Origin: Calditrichaceae bacterium
GTDB taxonomy: Bacteria > Calditrichota > Calditrichia > Calditrichales > JBFXGD01
Direction of reading: 5' to 3'
Assembly: GCA_050178385.1 (NCBI GenBank)
Contig: JBFXGD010000002.1
Coordinates: 842 to 64,841, forward strand
Length of the DNA stretch: 64,000 bases
Made by a program: the position numbers and the translations under genes. Shown here piece after piece: positions 2,171-38,888 of this stretch. Under the pieces are notes generated by a model, which ran no database searches, was not told the origin of the DNA, and saw only the letters and a program-made list of their open reading frames with translations. Position 1 is the stretch's first letter, and each line of letters opens with the position of its first letter.

Positions 2171-3724
2171 ATGATTCGACGAAAATTTTTAAATGTGGTT
2201 TTATCATTATCCGGAAGTTTGCTTCTGATTCCGAATAAAATATTAAGCGCCGCTGGCAGGCCTGCTCAGTTTGATGATATGCCGGGGAAGAAAAAATTAA
2301 TTATCAATATTGCCGCCAAAGGCATCAACGCAAAAGAAATACGTGTGTTATATAAATGGAAAGAACCTTATCTCTCTCTCCCGGAATTCGTCGCGAGCTG
2401 CGATTATGGTATTTATACGAATCCGGCAAAAAGAAAATCAGTGGTCTATATCGGTAATGACAAAGCAACTTTTACCGCCGATAACACTTTTGTTATACTG
2501 AATGAACAAATTTATCAAAATTTATATGAGTCCATCTGGAAAGATTCCGAGTTGTGGATTCCGGTTCAGGCCTTATCTGATCTTTTCAGTAAGTATACAT
2601 CCCAACATATGGAATTTGATAAGGAAAATCTGCGGCTGAATATAGGAATGAAAGCCGTAAATATTTCAAATATAAAAATTTCAATAAAGGAAAACGGTAC
2701 TTTAATCCGTATTATGGTTCAAAAAAGGTTTGCCGAAAAAGATATCACCCTTGATATCAGGAACGGCTGGCTGCACGCAGATTTCTTAGGCGGTAAAGTT
2801 GACACCGAGATGCTAAGCAGGCAAAAAGCGGGAGGCATCGTCTCAAGTATTCAGGCCATTCAATTCGAACAGTTGGCATCGATCGCGTTCAAATTAAAGA
2901 CTGATATACTGTCAAAGGAACTTATTTTTGATCAGGATTCTGATGATGTCTGGATAAATATCAGGACAAAAGAGAATATATCACATGAAAAGACCGAAGA
3001 TCTGGAACGTCAGAAAAATAATTGGCTTATCGATACGATAATAATAGATGCCGGACACGGAGGTAAAGATCCCGGAGCGGTCGGGTATGGTAAGTTAAAT
3101 GAGAAGGAGATCAATCTTGCGGTTGCCTTAAAGCTGGGTGAAATAATTTCCAAGAAGAATCCGTCACTCAAAATCGTTTATACACGAAAAACGGATGTAT
3201 TTATTCCACTCTGGCAACGTACAAAGATTGCCAACGAAAACAAAGGGAAACTATTTATCAGCCTTCATTGCAACAGCAGCAAAAGCCAAAAGGCGTCAGG
3301 TTTTGAAACATACTTTTTGAGCGCCGACAAAAATGAGAAGGCCAAAGATGTAGTATTAAAGGAAAATGCTTCAATCGAATTTGAAGAATCACATGACCGG
3401 CAGCGTTACGAGGGTGTAAATTTTATATTGGCGACAATGGCTCAGAGCGCTTTTATCAGGCAAAGCCAATACTTGTCATCCCTTGTGCAGACTTCACTGA
3501 ACCGGAAACTAAATCCGCTCGGAATGGTCGACCGGGGGGTAAAACAAGGACCTTTTTGGGTTATGGTTGGGGCGACAATGCCCAACATCCTGATAGAAAT
3601 GGGATATATTTCAAATAAATATGAATCCAAAATGCTAAAAAACAAATCAACGCAGCTAAAACTCGCGGAAGCGATATATGAAGGTATTGCGAAATACAAA
3701 AATGATGTGGAAAGTTCTATATAA
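2171..3724 (+). CDS. N-acetylmuramoyl-L-alanine amidase (Amidase_3 family) with a long N-terminal domain
   Basis: Signal-like N-terminus. The C-terminal half has Amidase_3 hallmarks: IIIDAGHGGKDPGAVG, LFISLHCNS, GFETYFLS, ILIEMGYISN. Confidence 0.9.
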   Translation: MIRRKFLNVVLSLSGSLLLIPNKILSAAGRPAQFDDMPGKKKLIINIAAKGINAKEIRVLYKWKEPYLSLPEFVASCDYGIYTNPAKRKSVVYIGNDKATFTADNTFVILNEQIYQNLYESIWKDSELWIPVQALSDLFSKYTSQHMEFDKENLRLNIGMKAVNISNIKISIKENGTLIRIMVQKRFAEKDITLDIRNGWLHADFLGGKVDTEMLSRQKAGGIVSSIQAIQFEQLASIAFKLKTDILSKELIFDQDSDDVWINIRTKENISHEKTEDLERQKNNWLIDTIIIDAGHGGKDPGAVGYGKLNEKEINLAVALKLGEIISKKNPSLKIVYTRKTDVFIPLWQRTKIANENKGKLFISLHCNSSKSQKASGFETYFLSADKNEKAKDVVLKENASIEFEESHDRQRYEGVNFILATMAQSAFIRQSQYLSSLVQTSLNRKLNPLGMVDRGVKQGPFWVMVGATMPNILIEMGYISNKYESKMLKNKSTQLKLAEAIYEGIAKYKNDVESSI

Positions 3725-4575
3725 TGAGAAATCCAATAGGAATATTTGACTCGGGAATAGGCGGTTTAACGGTTGTAAAAGAACTCATAAAACTTCTGCC
3801 GGATGAACACCTTATATATTTCGGTGACACGGCAAGAATTCCCTACGGGACAAAATCAAAAAGACTGATCGAACAATATGCGTTGGAAGACGCGAATTTT
3901 TTACTTCAATATGATATAAAATTATTGGTTGTGGCATGTAATACGGCGTCATCTCTCGCGCTGCCGGTCCTCGAAGAAAAGCTGAAAATTCCGGTTGTAG
4001 GGGTTGTAAAGCCGGGCGCCAGGGCGGCTGTAAAAATGTCCAAAAACAAGAGAATAGGTGTGGTTGGAACCTCTGCTACTATAAACAGTTCATCTTACGG
4101 CAAAGAAATTAGTCTAATCTTAAAGGATGCGCAGGTATTTGGCCAGCCATGTCCACTCCTTGTTCAATTGGTTGAAGAAGGATGGCTGGATGATGAAATA
4201 ACCATGTTAACACTAAAAAAATATCTGGAGCCGATTTTAATAGAAAAAATAGATACGCTGATTTTGGGTTGTACTCATTATCCTTTATTGGAGAAAGCGA
4301 TACGTCAGGTAGCCGGGCCGGGTGTTAATCTTATTGATTCAGGACGGGAAACAGCAAAGGCGGTTAAAGAATTACTGAATGGTTTAAATATATTGAACAA
4401 TTCAGGCCGGTTTGGAGCGAACAGATATTATGTAAGTGATATTCCGGCGAAATTTGAAGAAATTGGTTCACGTTTTCTTGGTCAGCCTTTAAAAAATGTT
4501 GAACGGGTTGAATTTGAAAAATTTCTGATACAGTCAGGAATGAATATGGCTCATACTAAAATGTATGGGGCATAA
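3724..4575 (+). CDS. murI: Glutamate racemase
   Basis: IGIFDSGIGGLTV, FGDTARIPYG, VVACNTAS and LGCTHYP motifs. The TAATG overlap with the amidase stop suggests coupling. Confidence 0.95.
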   Translation: MRNPIGIFDSGIGGLTVVKELIKLLPDEHLIYFGDTARIPYGTKSKRLIEQYALEDANFLLQYDIKLLVVACNTASSLALPVLEEKLKIPVVGVVKPGARAAVKMSKNKRIGVVGTSATINSSSYGKEISLILKDAQVFGQPCPLLVQLVEEGWLDDEITMLTLKKYLEPILIEKIDTLILGCTHYPLLEKAIRQVAGPGVNLIDSGRETAKAVKELLNGLNILNNSGRFGANRYYVSDIPAKFEEIGSRFLGQPLKNVERVEFEKFLIQSGMNMAHTKMYGA

Positions 4576-7760: not shown

Positions 7761-8924
7761 TTAACGTTTGAAGAAATCGTTAACCACCGTTTCAAGTTCT
7801 TTATCTTTTAACCCTGAAAGCTCACCTAAATAAAGATGACCGTCAGCCGGAAATTTATCTTCATCTTTGGATGCTATCGCTACCTTTTTGATAAATTCCT
7901 GCACCCGCTTAATGTCAGTATGATAAAAACTTACCGCGCTTTCACCGATTTTTAAATCTTTGATCTCTAAATCAAGCTGTGATGATTCCAGTTTACAAAT
8001 CCAGTTTTTGTCATATGTGGTAGTATCAAGTCTGTCGAGATCATCAAGCAGCGCTTTGTTGATCTTCTCAACTTTACCCGATACAGGTGCGTTGAAAGGG
8101 ATTGAATGCGTACCCTGGCGGATACTGAAAAGATTTTGCCCTTTTTTGATTTCCATCCCCAGATTGGGAAGTTCGATGGAATCAATTTTACCGATTAATT
8201 TTTTTGCAAAATCGTCAATACCCACATTCACTTTTCCGTCCTGGTCAATTCCGGCCCAGCAGTGGCCCTCGGAAATGAAAACACCACCTGGGATGGAAAA
8301 TTCGACCGAGGCCGGAATCTGTGTGTCTGTCAGATGTGTAATATTAACCTGAGGAACAAGCTGCCGATGGATGCGCTCTTGTCTTGTGATCAGTGATTTT
8401 TTGATCATGGCGAGCAGTTCATCTTCAGTAAACGGCTTCTGAACATAATCCAACGCACCGAATTTCATAGTCTCAACAGCTGTTTCGACAGACGCGTAAC
8501 CGGTAATAACAATCACATCTATATCCGGCCGCAAATGTTTTACGCTTTTGCATACATCCACACCATCCATTTCGGGCATTTTTAAATCGACAAATACAAA
8601 ATCATAATGGTGTTTTTGTATTAATCCTAACGCCTCTTGTCCTGATTCAACGGTATCGACGCAATATCCGTCAAGGACAAGAATTTTTCTGAAGCTGTCA
8701 AGAATTACGGCTTCGTCGTCTACCGCAAGAATTTTAGCTTTAGGATTCTCAACTTCGACGCGTTTAAGGCTTTTAGCCTCATGAGTGAAATCCAGATTCA
8801 GGCTGACTTTAAGCGCTTCTTCGCGTTCACCTAAAATTCTTTTTGTGTTGATTTTTTTGATTATCATGCGAATGATGATATCTGCAATCACAAAAAGAAT
8901 GACTGCTAAAACTAAAAATAGCAT
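7761..8924 (-). CDS. Membrane-anchored response regulator: N-terminal TM helix + REC + GcvH-like domain lacking the lipoyl lysine
   Basis: Hydrophobic N-terminus MLFLVLAVILFVIADIIIRMII. REC motifs LAVDDE, FVFVDLKMPEMDG (Asp113), VITGY, QKPF. Residues ~215-325 align by eye to glycine-cleavage H protein (HCWAGID.DGKVNVGIDDFA..IGKIDSIELP..G......APVSGKV..IN..L). The position of the lipoyl-Lys (ESVKA in E. coli GcvH) reads QGTHS. I see no DNA-binding or AAA+ domain. Confidence 0.75.
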   Translation of the reverse strand: MLFLVLAVILFVIADIIIRMIIKKINTKRILGEREEALKVSLNLDFTHEAKSLKRVEVENPKAKILAVDDEAVILDSFRKILVLDGYCVDTVESGQEALGLIQKHHYDFVFVDLKMPEMDGVDVCKSVKHLRPDIDVIVITGYASVETAVETMKFGALDYVQKPFTEDELLAMIKKSLITRQERIHRQLVPQVNITHLTDTQIPASVEFSIPGGVFISEGHCWAGIDQDGKVNVGIDDFAKKLIGKIDSIELPNLGMEIKKGQNLFSIRQGTHSIPFNAPVSGKVEKINKALLDDLDRLDTTTYDKNWICKLESSQLDLEIKDLKIGESAVSFYHTDIKRVQEFIKKVAIASKDEDKFPADGHLYLGELSGLKDKELETVVNDFFKR

Positions 8925-8996
8925 TTTTTGGCTCCTTGGATAAGATATACATTTATAATCACATTATAAGTTTAAATTTATTTTTTCTGCTCTCCT

Positions 8997-9803
8997 CTAA
9001 ATTCTGTCTGAGCTGCAGGGTGTTAAATGCTTTAGTTCGTATTCAAGGTCAGAAGGAATGATACGATAAAACCACCCTTTGAAATAGGGATCCTTTTCTA
9101 TAATCTGTTTATCCTTCAGCAAATGATCATTTATTTCTATAATTCTTCCCGTCATCGGCGCAAGAATATTGTGAACAAGATTATCAGTAGTGACAAGTTG
9201 GGCACACGCGTTACCCTGGACAATCTCTTCATCCATATTTAAAAGTTCTATATGGTCAATGCTGTCAACCGTTCTCAAAAGCAAATCTGTGATGCCTGTT
9301 AATACAGAACCGTCATGTTCGATGTAAAGCCAGCTCCCATAACCTAGACGAAAATATTTTGCGGGGCAGGGGATATATATAATCGATGCATCATTTTTTA
9401 CTGAATTTACATGTTTTAAAGATTTATTTATTTCAGCATATTTTAAACCCCGAAAAACAGAACTCAGCAGTTCATCTACCGTAAATGGTTTTGGCAGAAA
9501 ATCTATCGCGCCTGTGTATAACGATTTTACCGCATTTTCAACCGTGGAATATCCGGTAGTCATTATAACCGGAGAATCCAGATTCTGAGGAATGATCTCA
9601 TCCAGAAACATAAAACCGTCCATCTCAGGGAGCATAATATCACATATGATCAGCCGGTATCTGTTTTTGGCGATTTTATTCAAACCTTCATTCGCGTCAA
9701 GCGAAGAATCAACACTAAAGCCTTCGTTGGTACAAAGTTTGATTACGGAATCAATGATCACCTGTTCATCATCAATAATAAGTATATCATATTCTTTGCT
9801 CAT
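8997..9803 (-). CDS. Response regulator: REC + GcvH-like domain lacking the lipoyl lysine
   Basis: REC motifs IIDDEQ, LIICDIMLPEMDG, MTTGY, LPKPF. The C-terminal ~115 aa is GcvH-like (WLYIEHDGSVLTGITDLL..VDSIDHIELL......LAPMTGRIIEIN..L......DPYFKGWFYRI). The Lys position reads TTDNL. No HTH recognisable. Confidence 0.75.
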   Translation of the reverse strand: MSKEYDILIIDDEQVIIDSVIKLCTNEGFSVDSSLDANEGLNKIAKNRYRLIICDIMLPEMDGFMFLDEIIPQNLDSPVIMTTGYSTVENAVKSLYTGAIDFLPKPFTVDELLSSVFRGLKYAEINKSLKHVNSVKNDASIIYIPCPAKYFRLGYGSWLYIEHDGSVLTGITDLLLRTVDSIDHIELLNMDEEIVQGNACAQLVTTDNLVHNILAPMTGRIIEINDHLLKDKQIIEKDPYFKGWFYRIIPSDLEYELKHLTPCSSDRI

Positions 9804-9817
9804 CGGGATTCCTGATT

Positions 9818-11689
9818 TTAACTTGCTGACCTGGTGGCCGGGATCCTCATCGTGAAGGTTGTCCCTTCGCCGATATTGCTGTCGACGGTTATGGTACCGT
9901 TATGATTGTCAATAATACCCCAGATGATCGCCAGGCCAAGCCCCGTGCCTCGCTGGCCTTTTGTTGAATAAAATGGTTCAAATATGCGATAGAGATTCTC
10001 TTTTGGAATGCCGCATCCCGAGTCCGAAATTTTAATCTCTATAAATTCCCTTTTACCTTCCAGTTCAATCATCTTCCAGTTCTGCCATCCGCAATCCCTG
10101 TTTGTACAGCCGACAAACTCACCCTGTGTTGGAATTTCAAATGAATACACGGAAGATGCGCATTTTGGGCATTTGTTGTTTTTTTCTATTAGCGAAATAT
10201 CGCAATGGGGGCACAACAACTGTAGCGACTTATTTTTACTATATTCGATACCAAAGTAATGCCTTGATTTCCCGTAGATCGGGTCGAGATTAACAAAACC
10301 GGAGCTGCCGTTTGAAAGCGCCTTTAGTTTAATCGAAGGTAAACCGTCGATTTTAATTTCATTGTCGATAAGACTGTGTCCTTTTGGACAAGCGGCTCTT
10401 TTAATCTGCATATAGCCTTTTGGTGGAACAAAAAGTAAAGATGTTGACACATTTATGTTTCCACCGTTTTTCCCGATTGCATCATTCGCGTTAACCACCA
10501 GGTTGATAAAAACCTGTTCTATCTGGTTGGCGTCAATGGTTACTTTTGGCAGCTGTATATCAAGGTTTTTAATAATTTTTACATTGTTGATGGTCAATTG
10601 ATTCTCTACCACACCAATCGCGTGGTTAAGAATATCATTGATGTTCGAATTATTTTTTTTCGGAACTGATTGTCTGGCAAAATCCAGCAGTCCTTTTACA
10701 ATTTCCCTGCTTCTTTTTGTTTCTCTGACAATTACTTCTAAATCCGATTGCAATTCCGAATTGCCCTTGGTCCTCTTTAGTAAAAAACTGCTGTATGTTA
10801 AAATCCCGGTCAGCGGGTTGTTAATCTCGTGCGCGACGCCGGCCGCGAGACGGCCAAGTGAGGCCAGTTTATCTGATTGAAATAACTGCATTCTGGCTTC
10901 GGATAATTTTTGCGTCATGTTGTTAAATGAACGGGCAAGCATTCCCAATTCATCATTGCTGTGTTCCTTAATCGTGTAGTTCAGATTTCCGGCGGCGACA
11001 TTCTTCGTAGCCTGTAGCAGAGTGTTCACCGGTTTGTCAACCAAACTTTTCACGAAGTACCAAACGGTGCCGCTCAGGAGAATGATGGCAATGATGGCAA
11101 ACATGAGCATTTTGAATTTTGTTGACGCAATCTGATTGTCAATTGCCTTGATGGAAATAGTGACATCGAGGACGCCAAGAACGGTTTTTTCAGATGCGTG
11201 TGCATGACAATCGGCTTCCCAGCAGGAAGGTTCATTATAAATCGGATTAATTATACCTAACACCCTGGAAGAATCAGGTGCTAATTTATAGACACGCGTG
11301 CGCTTTTCAATCTCAAGTTTTTCCAGGGGTTTATTAGCCGCGTGACAAGCGTAACATGCTTCGGTCTTTTTGTCAACCATATGTCCGATTGCAGTAGTAT
11401 CAGAAGAATAGATGATCTCTCCTTCTTTATTAAAAACCCGGACTTCGTTAATGCAGGGTTGATTCCCGATTGTCTGAATAATGTTATGGATATGCGCGCG
11501 TTCATTAAGAAGCATTCCGTATCTGGTGCTATTCTTAACCGTTTCGCTTAGTTGGTTGACATGTCTCTCCACCTCATCAAAAAGAGCCTTACTCTGAGAT
11601 TGTACGTTCAGATAGGCAAATACGAATATGATGATGATGGTTGCCGTTCCTACGGCGGAGATTAATTTAAATCCAATTTTCTTGAACAT
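9818..11689 (-). CDS. Sensor histidine kinase: two TM helices, periplasmic domain with c-haem-type motifs, HAMP, DHp, and a HATPase domain split by a Cys-rich insertion
   Basis: TM1 at ~res 9-28 and TM2 at ~193-213. Between them lie CYACH (res 112-116) and CWEADCH (156-162). HAMP-like 214-265. H-box AGVAHEINNPL. N-box NLVVNANDA. Then a ~128-aa insertion (res ~418-545) containing CPKGH, CPHC..x10..CPKC and C-x4-C. This is followed by G1 DSGCGIP, the F-box FEPFYSTK and G2 GTGLGLA. Confidence 0.85.
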   Translation of the reverse strand: MFKKIGFKLISAVGTATIIIIFVFAYLNVQSQSKALFDEVERHVNQLSETVKNSTRYGMLLNERAHIHNIIQTIGNQPCINEVRVFNKEGEIIYSSDTTAIGHMVDKKTEACYACHAANKPLEKLEIEKRTRVYKLAPDSSRVLGIINPIYNEPSCWEADCHAHASEKTVLGVLDVTISIKAIDNQIASTKFKMLMFAIIAIILLSGTVWYFVKSLVDKPVNTLLQATKNVAAGNLNYTIKEHSNDELGMLARSFNNMTQKLSEARMQLFQSDKLASLGRLAAGVAHEINNPLTGILTYSSFLLKRTKGNSELQSDLEVIVRETKRSREIVKGLLDFARQSVPKKNNSNINDILNHAIGVVENQLTINNVKIIKNLDIQLPKVTIDANQIEQVFINLVVNANDAIGKNGGNINVSTSLLFVPPKGYMQIKRAACPKGHSLIDNEIKIDGLPSIKLKALSNGSSGFVNLDPIYGKSRHYFGIEYSKNKSLQLLCPHCDISLIEKNNKCPKCASSVYSFEIPTQGEFVGCTNRDCGWQNWKMIELEGKREFIEIKISDSGCGIPKENLYRIFEPFYSTKGQRGTGLGLAIIWGIIDNHNGTITVDSNIGEGTTFTMRIPATRSAS

Positions 11690-11732
11690 TTTATTCTTTC
11701 AGATGTCGAATTTTGTTGACTATGACATTAAG

Positions 11733-11794
11733 GGCGGTATGCATAATTTGAAAATTTCAGGGTTTGCCCGCGTGATTAAAGGATGCATACCGCC
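11733..11794. repeat. 12-bp perfect inverted repeat with a 38-nt spacer between the cytochrome gene and the kinase gene
   Basis: GGCGGTATGCAT (11733-11744) and ATGCATACCGCC (11783-11794) are exact reverse complements. They sit in the 156-bp gap between the cytochrome stop (11846) and the kinase start (11689). Confidence 0.7.
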
Positions 11795-11845
11795 TATTCT
11801 TATCTTACATAATATTACGAAACAAATATATGCCTGATCAATAAT

Positions 11846-13009
11846 TTAAAGTTTTGTTTTTGTTAAGCTGCCTGGCATTGCAGCCGGGTATTTATAATTA
11901 TCATGGCAATTGTCACATGTCGGTTTTTTGTTAAAATTGAGATCAATATGGCATGATTCACAATCCATTGCACTATGGTTTTCATCAAGGACTAATCCGG
12001 TTACGCGATGTTTGAATGACTCGGGATTCCAGTTTTTGTGACAGCTGGTGCATGTTGGATTCAGACTTGAAAAGATTTTATTCTCGCCATGACAAGTCTG
12101 ACATCTAAGGGATGCGTGGTAACTTTTGAGCGGCCATTTTGCGGTAACAGAATGGTCGAACGGTCCCTTTTGCTTGTTGCTGTGACACTTAGTACAATTA
12201 TCATCAGCATGGCAGGAGAAGCAGGTTTCATGTTTTTCATCAACTGATTTACTTGCAGCTACAGGTTTTGCCGTGGCTACCTGTTCCTTATAAGTTGATT
12301 TTGAAAGGTCGTGACAACGACTACAGCTCTCGTTGGTATGACAATCAACGCATTTAAATCCAAACTTTCCTGAATGTTCATTATGATAGAAAGTCACATA
12401 TTTGCCCTCTTTGGCCGCGGTTTCGTAAACCACTTTATCCGGTTCTGTAATCTTTGGGTGTTTTGAGCCAATAATGTCACTTTGATCAGAAATCTTTTTC
12501 TCGGGAGAGGCGGCACCTTTTAAAACATGGCATACATTGCAGTCAGTTGTATGACTCCATTCGCGGTGACAGCTTAAACACTGCCGGTGATAGGCGCCTT
12601 TTAGGCCCGGTTTGCTGAGATCAGCTCTTATGGGTTCTGTCTCATGACATTCCTTACACGCGGCAATCTTACCGGGAGGGTTATGATGATGACATGATGT
12701 ACAGCTTCCGGACATTTGTCCCATTTCAGCATGAAGCCTGTGCGGGAAAACCGTCGGTTCGTATATGTTTGATAAAATATCGATATTCAAAGTATCGGGT
12801 CCCTCATCAGGAGTATGGTGAATGGTTACCACATTCCGTTTAAATTCAGGGCAGCATGTAAGACACGGGTCCGCTTCCGTCGGATTGTCGCAGCTGTGAC
12901 AGGATTTGCAATCCAGAGCAAGTTTTGAATGATGTTCAGTACTGACTGTCTGTGCAAACAGCGGGGTGATGATGAGTAAAAAGCCAATAATCAGATTTAA
13001 TTTTTTCAT
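11846..13009 (-). CDS. Periplasmic multihaem c-type cytochrome (13 CXXCH motifs, cytochrome c3-family-like)
   Basis: Signal peptide MKKLNLIIGFLLIITPLFAQ. There are 13 CXXCH motifs: CKSCH, CTSCH, CKECH, CLSCH, CNVCH, CVDCH, CSRCH, CFSCH, CTKCH, CQTCH, CTSCH, CESCH, CDNCH. No CXXCK motif is present. The ATG overlaps the upstream gene's stop (ATGA at 13006-13009). Confidence 0.9.
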   Translation of the reverse strand: MKKLNLIIGFLLIITPLFAQTVSTEHHSKLALDCKSCHSCDNPTEADPCLTCCPEFKRNVVTIHHTPDEGPDTLNIDILSNIYEPTVFPHRLHAEMGQMSGSCTSCHHHNPPGKIAACKECHETEPIRADLSKPGLKGAYHRQCLSCHREWSHTTDCNVCHVLKGAASPEKKISDQSDIIGSKHPKITEPDKVVYETAAKEGKYVTFYHNEHSGKFGFKCVDCHTNESCSRCHDLSKSTYKEQVATAKPVAASKSVDEKHETCFSCHADDNCTKCHSNKQKGPFDHSVTAKWPLKSYHASLRCQTCHGENKIFSSLNPTCTSCHKNWNPESFKHRVTGLVLDENHSAMDCESCHIDLNFNKKPTCDNCHDNYKYPAAMPGSLTKTKL

Positions 13010-14250
13010 TTTGCAGCCCCTCGAATAGCGAATTTTGTTTTTGGCCTATATCCTTTAACCGGTTGGCTTATAACAGGGAATATCAAAACGAGGGTGCGGT
13101 ACAACAATACTTCAAGAGCGATAAAGCCTACCGTGACGGAAATTTCTCCGATTGACGGGAAATATGAATTCATTGCATAAGGTGGTGTGTAGGCAACGAT
13201 AAAGGTATTGATTCTGTTTATCAGTACTCCGAATATCACCAAAAGAGAAGCAGTGAATAACCAGGATGGGGATTTCAGAGCTTTATTCGAGAGGAAAATC
13301 CTTAGAGGGATAATCACGCCGAACAGCATTTCAATGATAAACATTATGCTTTCGATATTGAAATCGAGTAAATAAACATAGGTTCCCCGAATAACCATAT
13401 CGCCTATTTTAAATGCAAGGTAAATTCCCAACAACGGGCCGATTATACGTCCCAAATTGGAGAGTACATGCATTTCTCTTTTTAGTCCAAAGGACTTTGA
13501 CGCGATCATAGATTCAAGAACGACCATCGGAAATCCAACAGAGATCGCGGAGAGTAAAAACAGAAGTGGCGCGATAGGAGTCTGCCAGAGCGGGTGAATC
13601 TTAGAACCTGCTAAGATCATAAGTGTTCCAAGGGATGACTGATGCAGACAGGATAACACAACACCGGCAATCAAAAAGATGAACATGGCCGGATTCAGAA
13701 TTTTGTCAAGAAATTTTAGCAGTGATTCCAGGGGTTTTACAAGACCTGCCAGAAATCCGTTTAAATGCACCTGACCTTTAAACCGCTCAATGACAACAGG
13801 GATAAATTCAATGTACAAAACAGTGAGATATGTCATCACGCATATACCGACTTCGAACAACGCTGAATTTCCGTTCCACATATACATGACATGATAAATA
13901 GAATAATAACGTCCGAGATCAATAAAGACTCCCAGGGCGACAAATGTATATCCTAACATGGCTGTGAGCAGAGCAGGACGTACAATAACGTGATAGTCTC
14001 CTCTATGGAAAACATGTCCGAGCGCGGCAGTTGTAAATCCTCCCGCGGCAAGGGCTACTCCCGCAGCCACATCAATGCCGATCCAAATACCCCATGGATG
14101 CTGATTGTCAAGGTTAGTTACTGCTCCAAGTCCGAATACAAATCTCAATAAAGCGAATATCAAGCCGTTTACAGCTAGTATCGTCAAGAAAATTACACCG
14201 GGTGTAAAAAATTTTTTTTCAATACGAGCAGGTTTAATCATTTCGTCCAT
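13006..14250 (-). CDS. NrfD/PsrC/HmcC-like integral membrane quinone-interacting subunit
   Basis: 414 aa and almost entirely hydrophobic, with about 10 predicted helices. Its N-terminus and overall layout resemble the polysulfide reductase NrfD family. It is flanked by an FeS subunit and a cytochrome, as in Hmc/Nhc/Qrc-type complexes. Confidence 0.8.
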   Translation of the reverse strand: MDEMIKPARIEKKFFTPGVIFLTILAVNGLIFALLRFVFGLGAVTNLDNQHPWGIWIGIDVAAGVALAAGGFTTAALGHVFHRGDYHVIVRPALLTAMLGYTFVALGVFIDLGRYYSIYHVMYMWNGNSALFEVGICVMTYLTVLYIEFIPVVIERFKGQVHLNGFLAGLVKPLESLLKFLDKILNPAMFIFLIAGVVLSCLHQSSLGTLMILAGSKIHPLWQTPIAPLLFLLSAISVGFPMVVLESMIASKSFGLKREMHVLSNLGRIIGPLLGIYLAFKIGDMVIRGTYVYLLDFNIESIMFIIEMLFGVIIPLRIFLSNKALKSPSWLFTASLLVIFGVLINRINTFIVAYTPPYAMNSYFPSIGEISVTVGFIALEVLLYRTLVLIFPVISQPVKGYRPKTKFAIRGAAK

Positions 14251-14259
14251 TATCGCCTC

Positions 14260-15153
14260 CTACTCAACTTCTTCTTTGTTCTTGTTGATCCACATGATAC
14301 CGCCAAGCAGCGCATAAAGAGATACCGGTGGGATAAAATATTTAAATATTGCGTGCTGAATGGCTTCCGATACGCCGGGCGCCGGGTTATCAGCTAATTT
14401 TGGGAAATCCAGATCAGCGAAATCTGTCGATGAAAGATACAGCCATGATGTACCGCCGACTTCTTTCTCACCGTAAATATGGTCAAAATATTTTTCGGGA
14501 TTCTTTTTGATTCTTTCACGGGCGATTTTTAACAGATCGGAGCGTTTTCCATAGGTCAGAGCTTCCACAGGGCACATTTCTACGCATGCCGGAAGCAGAC
14601 CTTCTTTTGTTCTTTCAAAACAAAAATCACATTTTTGGACCTGTGGCGTAAGAGCATTTTTGTATTCATAGGAAGGGATCTGAAAAGGACAGGCGACCAT
14701 GCAGTACCGGCAGCCGATACACTTATTGACATCATATATCACCGATCCGTTCTCTTCTTTAGAAAGTGCGCCTACAATACATGCGGAAACGCAAGCCGGG
14801 TGATCGCAGTGCATGCACTGGACCTTGACGTTTATGGGGTATTTACCTCCATTGTTGTTGTCATATTCATTAACAACGGTGTGACCATCAAAATCCGGCC
14901 TTCTTAATTTTTCAAACACAGACCGGTCATCATATGATTCAATCGATCCGGTAGGGAAATCATGTGCCTTTTTACAGGCATACTCACATTTTCGGCAGCC
15001 AATGCAAACGGTCGTGTCAACAAGCACGCCCATCCGATCTTCCATCAATACATTTTTGGGGGCAGCCTTTGCCTGCTTGGCTCCCACACCGGTTAGACCG
15101 GCACCGACCAATCCGGCGGTTTTGAAAAAATCGCGTCGGCTCTGTTTACCCAT
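14260..15153 (-). CDS. TAT-exported 4x[4Fe-4S] ferredoxin subunit (NrfC/HybA/HmcB-like) with a C-terminal TM anchor
   Basis: Twin-arginine signal SRRDFFKTAGLVGAGL. Four Cys clusters: CIGCRKCEYAC, CMHCDHPACVSAC, CIGCRYCMVACP, CDFC..x13..CVEMCP. Hydrophobic C-terminal helix YFIPPVSLYALLGGIMWI. Confidence 0.88.
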   Translation of the reverse strand: MGKQSRRDFFKTAGLVGAGLTGVGAKQAKAAPKNVLMEDRMGVLVDTTVCIGCRKCEYACKKAHDFPTGSIESYDDRSVFEKLRRPDFDGHTVVNEYDNNNGGKYPINVKVQCMHCDHPACVSACIVGALSKEENGSVIYDVNKCIGCRYCMVACPFQIPSYEYKNALTPQVQKCDFCFERTKEGLLPACVEMCPVEALTYGKRSDLLKIARERIKKNPEKYFDHIYGEKEVGGTSWLYLSSTDFADLDFPKLADNPAPGVSEAIQHAIFKYFIPPVSLYALLGGIMWINKNKEEVE

Positions 15154-15267
15154 TTTCGACTCCTTGTATTCGATTTCAAAATAATAATTTCACAAAATCA
15201 GCACGACAGATAAACTAATCGCACAAATATTTAATACCAATAGAACCATTCGTTACAGTTGGTGATA

Positions 15268-15281
15268 GCAAAATTTGTGCC
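15268..15281 (-). promoter_or_regulatory. Candidate sigma-54 (-24/-12) promoter for the nrfC-like operon
   Basis: The minus strand reads aaaGGCACaaattTTGCta, which is GG-N10-GC with exact spacing and a good -12 TTGCT. It lies ~115 nt upstream of the ATG at 15153 and is followed by an AAGGAG RBS. Confidence 0.5.
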
Positions 15282-15376
15282 TTTCTTTCGGAGAACGCGT
15301 TTTTAGATGATTTAATCTGTTAAATCTATGACAACGCTGCTTCCTCGCAATGGGTGGAATTTTACTTTCTCAGGTT

Positions 15377-15918: not shown

Positions 15919-16797
15919 ATGTACAAAATTGTTGAAGCAGGCTTTCTTGCGGAAAATATTAAACGTTTTGTGATTGAAGCGCCGAGAATTGCCAGCAAAC
16001 GAAAAGCGGGTCAATTTGTTATTATACGAATTGATGAGCATGGCGAAAGAATCCCTTTGACCATCGCGGATTCCGACAAAGAAAAGGGAACGATTACGAT
16101 TATTGTCCAGGGGATTGGAAAAACCACAAGCGCTCTGAATCTGAAAGAAGCGGGAGATCAGATTCTGGATGTTGTCGGACCGTTGGGGCACGAGTCTGAA
16201 ATCGAAAAATTTGGTACTGTCGTAAGTATTGGCGGCGGAGTGGGAACGGCAATTGCTTTTCCGACAGCGGTTGCTCTAAAAGATGCCGGAAATTATGTGA
16301 TCACAATTAACGGCGCCAGAAGCAAGGATATGGTTATCCTGGAAGATGAACTAAGGTCAGTAAGCGATGAGGCATACGTGACTACTGATGACGGATCTTA
16401 CGGATTCCACGGTTTTGTAACCCAGAAACTGCAGGAACTGCTCGATGCCGGCAAAAAAATTGATTTTGTTCTGGCCATTGGTCCGATCCCGATGATGAAA
16501 GCGGTAGCCGAAGTGACACGGCCGTATAAAATAAAAACAATTGTCAGTCTGAACCCCATTATGGTTGACGGTACAGGAATGTGCGGTGGATGCCGGGTTG
16601 TTGTGGGTAATGAATCTAAATTTGCCTGTGTTGATGGTCCGGAATTTGACGCGCATCTTGTCGACTTCAAAAATCTTTCCGACCGGAACAAGATGTATTC
16701 CAAACACGAGAAACTATCACTGGAAAAATTCAAACACGAATGCAATCTGGATAAACAGGCTAAAGCGCACAAGGAGCTCGAACAAGTTGAGAGCTGA
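15919..16797 (+). CDS. nfnA: NADH-dependent reduced ferredoxin:NADP+ oxidoreductase subunit A (NfnA / SudB-like FAD + 2Fe-2S subunit)
   Basis: MYKIVEAGFLAENIKRFVIEAPRIASKRKAGQFVIIRIDEHGERIPLTIADSD..GTITIIVQGIGKTT is typical of NfnA/SudB. C-terminal CGGCRV...C cluster motif. Confidence 0.85.
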   Translation: MYKIVEAGFLAENIKRFVIEAPRIASKRKAGQFVIIRIDEHGERIPLTIADSDKEKGTITIIVQGIGKTTSALNLKEAGDQILDVVGPLGHESEIEKFGTVVSIGGGVGTAIAFPTAVALKDAGNYVITINGARSKDMVILEDELRSVSDEAYVTTDDGSYGFHGFVTQKLQELLDAGKKIDFVLAIGPIPMMKAVAEVTRPYKIKTIVSLNPIMVDGTGMCGGCRVVVGNESKFACVDGPEFDAHLVDFKNLSDRNKMYSKHEKLSLEKFKHECNLDKQAKAHKELEQVES

Positions 16798-16863
16798 TTT
16801 TTAAATTATTTAGAAATTTAATATTTAGAAGAAATAAATTTAAATAAAAAAAATGGTGAACGA

Positions 16864-18291
16864 ATGCAAAAGTTGACAGCAAAAGAACGCATGAAAATAG
16901 CCCGGCATCCTATGGTTGAACAGGATCATCTGGAACGGGGACATAATTTCAAAGAGGTAAACCTCGGATATACCACTCAGATGGCACAGGAAGAGGCGTT
17001 AAGATGTTTACAATGCGCGAAGCCGACATGTGTACAGGGGTGTCCGGTTAATATACAAATTAAGGATTTTGTTACTCTGATCGCGGAAGGTGATTTTATT
17101 GGTGCCGTGCACAAAATTAAAGAAGACAACGCTCTCCCCGCGATTTGCGGACGTGTTTGTCCTCAGGAAGAGCAGTGTGAGCAGGTTTGTGTCGTGGCGA
17201 AGAGAGGCGAACCTGTTGCCATTGGAAATCTGGAACGGTTTGTGGCTGATTATGAAAGAACAAGCGGGAAAGTCGAACTGCCGAAAGTGGGAGCTCCAAC
17301 TGGGAAAAAAGTTGCTATAGTTGGCAGCGGTCCGGCCGGATTGAGCTGCGCTAAAGATATGATTCAGATGGGACATAAAGTGACCGTATTCGAAGCGCTC
17401 CATGAGTTGGGCGGGGTGCTGGTCTATGGAATTCCGGAATTTCGTCTGCCGAAAGATATCGTGCGGCAGGAAATCGAAGGTCTACAAAAAATGGGCGTTG
17501 AGTTTGTTACCGATGCCGTAATCGGAAGGACAACCACTATCGATGAACTCATGGAAGAAGAAGGGTATGACTCCGTGTTTGTTGGCGTGGGCGCCGGACT
17601 GCCATGGTTTCTTGGAATTCCTGGTGAAAATCTGATCGGAGTTTATTCGGCAAATGAATTTCTTACCCGTGTTAATTTGATGAAGGCGTACGATTTTCCA
17701 AATTTCGATTCGCCTGTTTTGGATTGCAAAGATAAGAATATTGCTGTTTTCGGTGGTGGCAACACCGCGATGGACTCAGTACGCACCGCGCTCAGGTTAG
17801 GAGCGAAAAACGCTTATATTGTATATCGCCGTTCTGACAAGGAAATGCCGGCACGCGCTGAGGAAGTAAAACATGCCAAGGAAGAGGGAATCCAGTTTCT
17901 GATGCTGACGAGTCCGCTTGAATTTGTCGGGGACGAAAGCGGCTGGCTGAATTCCATGAGATGCATCAAAATGGAACTTGGTGAACCTGATGCATCGGGC
18001 CGGCGGCGTCCGGTACCCATTGAAGATTCAGAGTTCGTTATGGAAATTGATTTGGCAATTATCGCTATCGGAAATGGATCAAATCCCCTTATCAAACAAA
18101 CTTCACCCGAAATAGAATTCACAAAACGCGGCACGATCGCCGTTGATAGTGAGACAATGAAAACATCCAAAAAAGGCGTGTTCGCCGGCGGGGATATCGT
18201 AACCGGCGGGGCAACAGTCATTCTGGCGATGGGGGCCGGCAGAAAAGCCGCGGCCGCCATGAATGATTTTATGAATAACGGCGATTGGTAA
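16864..18291 (+). CDS. nfnB: NfnB / glutamate synthase small-chain-like (GltD/SudA family) FAD/NAD(P) oxidoreductase
   Basis: N-terminal FeS motifs CLQCAKPTCVQGCP and CGRVCPQEEQCEQVC. Dinucleotide folds VAIVGSGPAGLSCA and VFGGGNTAMD. C-terminal GVFAGGDIVTGGATVI. Confidence 0.88.
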   Translation: MQKLTAKERMKIARHPMVEQDHLERGHNFKEVNLGYTTQMAQEEALRCLQCAKPTCVQGCPVNIQIKDFVTLIAEGDFIGAVHKIKEDNALPAICGRVCPQEEQCEQVCVVAKRGEPVAIGNLERFVADYERTSGKVELPKVGAPTGKKVAIVGSGPAGLSCAKDMIQMGHKVTVFEALHELGGVLVYGIPEFRLPKDIVRQEIEGLQKMGVEFVTDAVIGRTTTIDELMEEEGYDSVFVGVGAGLPWFLGIPGENLIGVYSANEFLTRVNLMKAYDFPNFDSPVLDCKDKNIAVFGGGNTAMDSVRTALRLGAKNAYIVYRRSDKEMPARAEEVKHAKEEGIQFLMLTSPLEFVGDESGWLNSMRCIKMELGEPDASGRRRPVPIEDSEFVMEIDLAIIAIGNGSNPLIKQTSPEIEFTKRGTIAVDSETMKTSKKGVFAGGDIVTGGATVILAMGAGRKAAAAMNDFMNNGDW

Positions 18292-38814: not shown

Positions 38815-38888
38815 GCGCCTGTAGCTCAATTGGATAGAGCGTTGGATTCCGGTTCCAAAGGTTGGGGGTTCGATTCCCTCCAGGCGTA
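38815..38888 (+). tRNA. tRNA-Arg (anticodon CCG)
   Basis: Hand-folded cloverleaf: acceptor GCGCCTG/CAGGCGT (G1-U72 wobble), D-arm GCTC..GAGC, anticodon stem TTGGA/TCCAA with loop TTCCGGT, T-arm GGGGG-TTCGATT-CCCTC, discriminator A. 74 nt, with no encoded CCA. Confidence 0.9.

Follow-up and report, generated by a model that had tools for sequence, protein, structure and literature searches.

The closest described relatives of the enzyme treated here are sensor histidine kinases of the NtrB/AtoS/ZraS type, among which E. coli ZraS (9jfj) gave the best sequence match to its DHp and catalytic core (E = 6e-35). These kinases possess the same H, N, G1, F and G2 boxes. A second system for comparison is CckA (5idm), which carries a "tower" insertion and in which c-di-GMP at the sheet edge cross-links the catalytic domain to DHp, switching the enzyme from kinase to phosphatase (PMC5026420). 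We analyzed a stretch of 64,000 nucleotides from a Calditrichaceae bacterium (GenBank assembly GCA_050178385.1, contig JBFXGD010000002.1, positions 842 to 64,841 of the forward strand), called the window in the following. It encodes a sensor histidine kinase of 623 amino acids, whose ATP-binding domain is split by a cysteine-rich insert of 128 residues. This insert had been noticed beforehand, and it was suggested to be a metal- or redox-sensitive module sitting next to the ATP lid, where it could gate autophosphorylation directly (hereafter the original prediction). ZraS possesses a hairpin turn of only 7 residues where the present kinase has 134, and no solved kinase among the matches harbored a domain at this site. 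CckA has 14 residues at that point. The likeness to CckA lies in the embellished catalytic domain and in regulation from the beta-sheet side. The CckA tower, however, is a short helix/loop without metal ligands, which judged by residue numbers probably resides elsewhere in the fold, and the effector of CckA is a nucleotide and not a fused domain.

The kinase is composed of a first transmembrane segment (TM1), a periplasmic sensor, a second transmembrane segment (TM2), HAMP (residues 219-263 according to Pfam), DHp (HisKA at residues 278-339) and the catalytic (CA) domain interrupted by the insert. The following features relate to the insert and its surroundings:

9818..11689, minus strand: sensor histidine kinase, 623 amino acids (open reading frame; Pfam HAMP, HisKA and HATPase_c above gathering thresholds)
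10673..10858, minus strand: DHp (HisKA) domain with the phospho-acceptor His287 (Pfam HisKA E = 1.3e-15; HEINNP invariant)
10439..10654, minus strand: N-terminal catalytic part, residues 346-417, comprising the N-box helix and the strand into the insert (ZraS/CckA alignment to ~415-419; predicted strand 410-421)
10055..10438, minus strand: insert, residues 418-545 (exact translation of these coordinates)
10043-10444, minus strand: gap relative to ZraS, residues 416-549 (alignment to 9jfj)
9821..10054, minus strand: C-terminal catalytic part, residues 546-623, comprising the return strand, G1, F box, ATP lid and G2 (Pfam; predicted strand 547-556; ZraS 168-236)
9941-9979, minus strand: ATP lid, residues 571-583, within the C-terminal catalytic part

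In the alignment with ZraS (9jfj), kinase residues 269-415 corresponded to ZraS 15-160 and residues 550-619 to ZraS 168-236. The surplus of residues between the N box and the G1 box, estimated earlier at about 128, was borne out, as about 127-134 residues are additional, the insert proper (residues 418-545) accounting for 128. The core of the insert covered by its family profile extends from residue 434 to 546 (match of the A2 profile to residues 435-546, E = 5.9e-34, profile positions 2-113 of 115). Whereas the G1 motif DSGCGIP starts at residue 556 as read initially, the N-box motif NLVVNANDA starts at 396, slightly before the position of ~398 given for it. Both the ZraS alignment and the structure predicted by AlphaFold2 placed the insertion point into the hairpin turn that connects the strand behind the N box with the one running into G1. 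The assumed position next to the ATP lid was not supported by these data. About 10 strand residues separate the insertion from the G1 Asp, and the lid (571-583) follows more than 25 residues later. The predicted hairpin topology does not suggest any contact between insert and lid either.

Despite the interruption, every criterion that could be checked in the sequence identifies the protein as a histidine kinase. HisKA scored 57.6 bits (cut-off 26.9), and H287 within HEINNP was invariant in 121 orthologues, the set to which the following residues refer as well. HATPase_c reached 77.6 bits (cut-off 26.4), with contiguous Pfam coverage restricted to residues 542-619 (profile positions 30-110). 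The residues N400, D556, G558, G560, F573, G581, G583 and G585 of the Bergerat fold were all invariant. Since all catalytic motifs are kept, the insert adds to the ATPase and does not destroy it.

The insert contains seven of the cysteines of the protein in 128 residues, while the other 495 residues share six (binomial P = 0.001). All motifs originally proposed were located, and they form four knuckles:

10376..10390, minus strand: knuckle 1, C434-P-K-G-H438 (C-x3-H); C434 and H438 invariant in 176 unique kinase inserts
10202..10213, minus strand: knuckle 2, C493-P-H-C496 (CPHC); invariant throughout the family
10160..10171, minus strand: knuckle 3, C507-P-K-C510 (CPKC); invariant in kinase inserts, family-wide C507 invariant and C510 at least 90%
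10091..10108, minus strand: knuckle 4, C528-TNRD-C533 (C-x4-C); C528 invariant, C533 variable

To assess the conservation of this architecture, the full-length protein was used for a search. The top 120 clusters comprised proteins of 618-634 amino acids with 61-96% identity and 99-100% coverage. They were drawn from NCBI, JGI, ENA and Logan assemblies and annotated as proteins of Calditrichaceae, Ignavibacteria or Bacteroidota metagenome-assembled genomes (MAGs). An exact look-up of the kinase of the window found no identical sequence on record. Within the insert, the alignment revealed invariance of G425, K430, A432, C434, H438, Y472, G473, C493, C496, C507, C510, C528, W538 and G545, and every catalytic box was likewise invariant in the 121 orthologues. 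A scan of one genome per species using alignment A1 detected 68 loci from at least six phyla, among them Calditrichaceae (94% identity), Ignavibacteriota, Bacteroidota, Gemmatimonadota, Elusimicrobiota, a "Deltaproteobacteria" MAG and Lysobacterales. By tblastn, the insert was found between the N- and C-terminal catalytic halves in all 68 loci at constant spacing. Its identity in these loci (39-58%) was lower than that of the flanking kinase segments (61-84%). Pooling yielded 176 unique kinase inserts, in which six Cys and H438 were invariant. Thus, the insert including six of its cysteines is kept across the orthologues, and the possibility that it is absent or unconserved there, named at the outset as one that would speak against a genuine module, does not apply.

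The seventh cysteine behaved differently. Of the 176 unique inserts, 43 carry S, N, G, P, T or D in place of C533, most of them from an Ignavibacteriaceae clade (loci L029-L077). Cys533 is evidently dispensable in this large clade, and by the same token the full ligand set is not essential. A small C533G group stands apart from the Ignavibacteriaceae clade, which lost C533 in favor of S, N, P, T or D. Five of six C533G orthologues contained His at position 537, compared to six of 115 with C533 (Fisher p = 1e-5, not corrected for phylogeny), a combination that looks like a ligand swap.

A word-indexed search with the insert alone disclosed just two matches, a kinase fragment and a 151-amino-acid protein, whose free-standing open reading frame is bordered by stop codons and non-coding AT-rich sequence on either side. 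The extreme rarity suggested by this search was overturned by the full-length search and by an exhaustive profile search of 1.84 billion representatives. The latter yielded 313 proteins at a threshold of E <= 1e-3, most of them free-standing, of which 107 also passed E <= 1e-10. Among the best 150 of the 313 were about 100 free-standing proteins of 115-180 amino acids, about 15 tandem duplications (270-297 amino acids), about 25 kinases or kinase fragments, and a few fusions, in which the partner is an adenylate cyclase/AAA protein, a Mur-ligase-like protein or, in three representatives (P0104, P0105, P0115), a NuoE-like [2Fe-2S] domain of the thioredoxin-like type that precedes the family domain. 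When 96 aligned sequences served as the query, 80 further proteins were obtained, nearly all of them "hypothetical proteins" of ~136 amino acids without Pfam domain. We define the family, nameless Cys-rich proteins of ~136 amino acids, by alignment A2.

The family shares the order CxxC ... CPxC-x9-10-CxxC-x17-C-x4-C of the four knuckles, which is present in the insert with C-x3-H as a variant of knuckle 1. All 176 unique inserts from orthologues and genome loci showed this variant. In the free-standing relatives, knuckle 1 is mostly the canonical CPxCxxSLMD with its CxxC. Besides the C-x3-H of the inserts, C-x3-C occurs in another kinase clade among the representatives, and either form is found in the closest free-standing subfamily. 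The idea that CPKGHSLID and CPHCDISLIE are duplicated half-motifs was upheld at the level of motif and family, as hhalign aligned knuckle 1 with knuckle 2 over 15 columns with a probability of 94%. No Pfam or NCBIfam model covered the domain when the insert and ten relatives were searched. Only sub-threshold fragments of zinc-ribbon, rubredoxin-like, anti-TRAP, methionyl-tRNA synthetase (MetRS) and topoisomerase I ribbon models emerged, nearly all on the central knuckles. The original prediction did not recognize a described kinase architecture here, and none was found described in Pfam, NCBIfam, the PDB or the searchable literature. Foldseek with the insert alone gave no matching fold in the PDB. 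Judging by these profiles, the insert is a member of a domain family without earlier description. The data show that a free-standing Cys-rich domain was taken up once, in ancient times, into the turn of a hairpin in the catalytic domain.

Structure prediction was in agreement with a separate domain. The insert alone, modeled by AlphaFold2 with an 81-sequence alignment, turned out to be all-beta (mean predicted local distance difference test score, pLDDT, 81.6; predicted template modelling score, pTM, 0.75), with every knuckle placed where a hairpin turns and with four strands forming a meander that separates knuckle 1 from knuckle 2. A Foldseek search of this model against the PDB retrieved no matching solved fold (best E = 0.56). 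The model of residues 265-623 (pLDDT 80) exhibited a canonical DHp and catalytic core, in which the insert reached a pLDDT of 82-93 and the strands 410-421 and 547-556 run into and out of it. The catalytic core matched ZraS best (Foldseek E = 2e-17, template modelling score 0.74 on the target), besides HK853 and CckA. The free-standing relatives and the model of the insert alone show it to be an autonomous, independently folding all-beta domain. In the kinase it is predicted to reside at the tip of a hairpin of which the second strand runs up to the G1 Asp.

Several known Cys-knuckle domains were compared with the insert. Zinc ribbons (Zn_Ribbon_1, DZR, Zn_ribbon_6; YfgJ, 2jne; anti-TRAP) have the CPxC-x9-10-CxxC pair of knuckles in common with it, and among PDB sequences YfgJ matched the family profile best (E = 5e-4). 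These matches, however, span only knuckles 2-3 (~25-40 residues), and the beta-meander of 55 residues as well as knuckles 1 and 4 are without counterpart. By score, the insert did not qualify as a classical or double zinc ribbon (PF12773, PF13240, PF07191), the kinase scoring 14.4 bits with DZR against a cut-off of 27.3. Relatives lacking an extra N-terminal ribbon reached 13.6-25.2 bits on zinc-ribbon models (cut-offs 25-27.3), and the fusion P0104 gave 26.3 bits with Zn_ribbon_6 (cut-off 25) over just 31 residues. The connective peptide of MetRS resembles the insert in being a Cys-knuckle module nested in a nucleotide-binding catalytic fold, and weak matches to PF09334 recurred with family members. 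It differs in its Rossmann host fold, compared to a Bergerat fold here, and the scores (E = 5e-4 to 1) remained below threshold. An identity with the nested MetRS-type knuckle was therefore rejected (PF09334 12-19.5 bits against 20.1; MetRS chains E = 0.15-2; no Foldseek match). The C4 ribbon of topoisomerase I (PF01396) shares the CPKC-x17-C-x4-C arrangement of knuckles 3-4 with a hairpin in between (profile E = 0.02), but this match was not significant, covered a quarter of the domain and superposed poorly (Foldseek template modelling score 0.24, root-mean-square deviation 13.7 A). C3HC4-type RING or cross-brace zinc fingers gave no significant model match either, RING and Prok-RING models reaching E = 0.016-0.05. 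Among rubredoxin-like models, NF033497 reached 26.7 bits (cut-off 32) in one homologue and rubrerythrin 16.7 bits (cut-off 200).

The four knuckles provide seven or eight conserved ligands, which most likely form two tetrahedral metal sites. Which knuckles would pair was studied by mean-field direct coupling analysis (DCA) of 372 unique sequences (effective number 240). The analysis recovered the beta-hairpins, and the strongest coupling between knuckles was that of 3 and 4 (S512-N530, 3.06; 99th percentile of the background 1.15), the weakest that of 1 and 4. Nested, sequential and cross-brace pairings were not distinguished by these couplings, which neither support nor exclude a cross-brace. 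The resemblance to short zinc ribbons, to YfgJ (E = 5e-4), to the MetRS knuckle and to anti-TRAP favors a site formed by knuckles 2 and 3, leaving 1 and 4 for the other. This pairing would place both evolutionarily variable ligands in one site. The single predicted strand (501-506) between knuckles 2 and 3 argues against it. Accordingly, the original prediction was right in recognizing a Cys-rich segment with CPxC knuckles typical of metal sites, while its CPHC-x10-CPKC pair as a single zinc-ribbon-like site is one of three pairings that are indistinguishable.

The kinase gene is part of a conserved cluster of six genes, which is arranged in the order NrfC-like 4Fe-4S protein, NrfD, multihaem c3-like cytochrome, kinase and two receiver-GcvH proteins of 268 and 387 amino acids. 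The cluster and the sensor features of the kinase are:

7761-15153, minus strand: conserved six-gene cluster (Pfam; synteny in L009, L010 and L011-L078)
14260-15153, minus strand: NrfC-like 4Fe-4S protein (Pfam; conserved synteny)
13006-14250, minus strand: NrfD-like protein (Pfam; conserved synteny)
11846-13009, minus strand: multihaem c3-like cytochrome (Pfam; conserved synteny)
11120..11599, minus strand: periplasmic sensor of the kinase with two c-haem motifs (motif residues invariant in 121 orthologues)
11342-11356, minus strand: CYACH motif, residues 112-116 (CxxCH type)
11204-11224, minus strand: CWEADCH motif, residues 156-162 (Cx4CH type)
8997..9803, minus strand: receiver-GcvH response regulator, 268 amino acids, directly downstream of the kinase (Pfam Response_reg, GCV_H)
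7761..8924, minus strand: second receiver-GcvH regulator, 387 amino acids, with N-terminal hydrophobic segment (Pfam)

This arrangement was conserved in both inspected orthologue contigs (L009, L010) and, in the genome loci, wherever the contig reaches far enough, which again encompasses at least six phyla. In all 68 loci the first receiver-GcvH gene lies downstream of the kinase. The second one was found downstream with a full-strength match (52-97% identity) in 61 loci, the contigs of the other seven ending just past the first regulator. Autophosphorylation and transfer of the phosphoryl group to a cognate receiver would be expected of this kinase type, and two receiver genes are located directly downstream. 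In both regulators a GcvH-like domain is the sole output domain and a DNA-binding domain is lacking. Judged by domain content, the output of the cluster is presumably not transcriptional. In an alignment with E. coli GcvH, the position of the lipoyl-lysine (K65) is occupied by Asn208 in one regulator and by Thr272 in the other, and neither domain is likely to be lipoylated. The regulator of 387 amino acids begins with the hydrophobic, probably membrane-anchoring segment MLFLVLAVILFVIADIIIRMII. Neither for the receiver-GcvH regulators nor for the insert did we find a description in the searchable literature.

In the periplasmic sensor, C112, C115, H116, C156, C161, H162 and H164 were invariant in the 121 orthologues. 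The CxxCH and Cx4CH motifs suggest two covalently bound c-type haems. Pfam gave only weak matches of this domain to Mcp40H-20_sensor and sCache_3_2, and no match at E <= 0.1 to DUF3365 (PF11845), the sCache_haem family of PMC12889525. The sCache_haem preprint deals with another sensor family than that of the present kinase (PMC12889525).

Next to the cluster in a complete Ignavibacteriales genome (L009 1328-4305, minus strand) we found a divergently oriented paralogue kinase of 538 amino acids, encoded at 2689-4305, which is paired with an NtrC-type sigma-54 activator. It possesses the same dihaem sensor (33% identity, motifs kept) but a plain hairpin without insert. The paralogue was not adjacent to the cluster in the other loci nor in the window. 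Together with its NtrC-type regulator it may constitute a transcriptional tier above the in-operon system. In the window itself, the sequence AGGCACAAATTTTGCT (15267-15282, minus strand) resembles a sigma-54-type -24/-12 element with one mismatch and is the sole such match. It resides on the same strand ~115 nt upstream of the first cluster gene. With up to two mismatches, 21 matches of this type occurred in the whole window and 24.7 were expected, which is not above chance.

Some further genes were recorded in the vicinity and in related contigs. At L010 337-3705 (minus strand), a free-standing GcvH-like gene (223 amino acids) and another kinase, of 530 amino acids, occur alongside a second NrfC/NrfD pair, which hints at a general link of GcvH-like domains with NrfCD-type modules. 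Divergent from the cluster of the window (15919-18291, plus strand) lie a DHODB-type Fe-S/FAD-binding gene and a GltD-like NAD(P)H oxidoreductase gene (Fer4_20 and Pyr_redox_2), and the two may serve as a pair for electron input close to the respiratory operon. One tRNA gene (38815-38888, plus strand) was the sole Rfam match at gathering threshold in the 64-kb window. Outside of kinases, one free-standing family gene is located directly after NuoE- and NuoF-like genes and a 1231-amino-acid NuoG-/molybdopterin-/GltD-like fusion in a Calditrichia genome (L002 1-6411), and the neighborhood of a second free-standing homologue (L006) harbors NuoF- and NuoG-like genes ~3 kb off on the opposite strand. 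In locus L002 a GcvT gene follows ~600 nt downstream of the family member.

We favor, with a probability of roughly 0.4, that the insert is a structural two-metal domain by which the catalytic domain gains a surface of its own for docking or regulation. A member of the family of small Cys-rich proteins was captured once into the hairpin turn joining the N-box and G1 halves. Its four knuckles would provide seven invariant ligands and a variable eighth one holding two tetrahedral ions, probably zinc, which may keep the domain folded. On the mobile catalytic domain, the insert would in effect be a small partner protein, otherwise acting in trans, that has become fused to the kinase. It may bias the packing of the catalytic domain on the DHp helices or on the receiver-GcvH partners and thereby set the balance of kinase and phosphatase activity. 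Knuckle domains nested in enzymes such as MetRS, the adenylate kinase lid and topoisomerase I are mostly structural, which is one reason for our preference. Others are the insertion point distal to the ATP site and the occurrence of the family both free-standing and as an add-on to several unrelated enzymes. Furthermore, the insert always occurs with the non-canonical receiver-GcvH partners, while the insert-less paralogue is combined with a conventional regulator. Finally, elements at the sheet side of CckA switch this enzyme from kinase to phosphatase via a cross-link to DHp (PMC5026420).

Some observations weigh against this explanation. The co-occurrence of insert and receiver-GcvH proteins is a single inherited cluster and not a series of independent events, and only one genome provides the contrast with a paralogue that lacks the insert. 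A comparison of six neighborhoods of free-standing homologues revealed no conserved synteny and hence does not point to a partner. A redox role would be just as compatible with the fusions to NuoE-like ferredoxins and with the respiratory context.

Such a role is the essence of the main rival, the idea put forward in the original prediction. Oxidation or loss of metal would unfold the insert, distort the hairpin of the G1 strand and switch ATP binding or autophosphorylation off or on, giving the kinase a second, cytoplasmic input beside the periplasmic haems. Zinc-thiolate switches are known from Hsp33 and RsrA, in which oxidation of a Cys-rich zinc site alters the conformation. They are not kinase inserts, and their likeness to the insert is confined to the Cys-rich site, as in the mechanism proposed earlier. 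The seven or eight conserved Cys/His ligands, one site of which with its His or variable ligand could be labile, are compatible with a metal-thiolate switch. So are the fusions of the domain to signalling enzymes (kinase, cyclase) and to NuoE-like [2Fe-2S] proteins, the family gene right after NuoE/F/G-like genes in one Calditrichia genome, the respiratory module encoded by the operon and the weak rubredoxin-like matches of homologues such as that to NF033497 (26.7 bits against 32). Conserved cysteines are, however, equally expected of a purely structural site, which is also what nested zinc-knuckle domains usually are. The position of the insertion point distal to the ATP lid and the clade-wide loss of C533, by which the full ligand set is not essential, speak against the switch as well. 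We consider it possible but rather doubtful, although none of the analyses separates it from a structural or docking role. A broader proposal, that the insert is a new embedded sensor in which a cytoplasmic metal-thiolate centre with zinc or iron sets the kinase-phosphatase balance directly through its redox or metal state, and that its free-standing homologues regulate kinases, cyclases and NuoE-type flavoenzyme complexes in trans, appears unlikely.

Alternatively, the insert might be a neutral or purely stabilizing embellishment, e.g., an additional dimer or lattice contact, which is inherited with the cluster and conveys no signal. The single capture, the constant inheritance with the same six genes and the lower conservation of the insert (39-58%) compared to the kinase flanks (61-84%) would fit this assumption. 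But a domain of 128 residues that retains its ligands and in addition K430, Y472, G473, W538 and G545 across at least six phyla indicates purifying selection on a function, which makes a neutral insert quite improbable. It is still harder to believe that the knuckles are rubredoxin-like iron centres, the free-standing copies being electron carriers and the kinase copy reading the cytoplasmic electron-donor pool. CPxC knuckles are common to rubredoxins and zinc ribbons, weak matches to rubrerythrin and rubredoxin-like domains exist, NuoE-like fusions and NuoEFG-like neighborhoods were found, and the hosts are mainly anaerobes or facultative anaerobes. On the other hand, no rubredoxin model reached its cut-off, Foldseek gave no rubredoxin-like match, and most of the neighborhoods of free-standing genes have no relation to redox enzymes. 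A chimeric join or another artefact of assembly or sequencing can practically be dismissed, since the frame is open throughout, composition and GC content do not change across the insert, and the same architecture is conserved in 120 protein clusters (NCBI, JGI, ENA, Logan) and 68 independent genomes; the insert is real and neither a chance feature nor a chimeric join.

In the usual picture, histidine kinases receive their input through N-terminal sensor domains that work on the DHp helices. Control through an entire conserved and metal-binding domain inside the ATP-binding domain would depart from this scheme, and the arrangement occurs in dozens of genomes of at least six phyla. The analysis also defines a conserved respiratory signalling cluster composed of a dihaem sensor kinase, two receiver-GcvH regulators and a module of NrfCD and a multihaem cytochrome. 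If the insert were indeed an embedded sensor, this respiratory two-component system would integrate periplasmic dihaem and cytoplasmic redox signals in one protein. Beyond the kinase, the insert offers a handle on several hundred small Cys-rich "hypothetical" proteins without family name.

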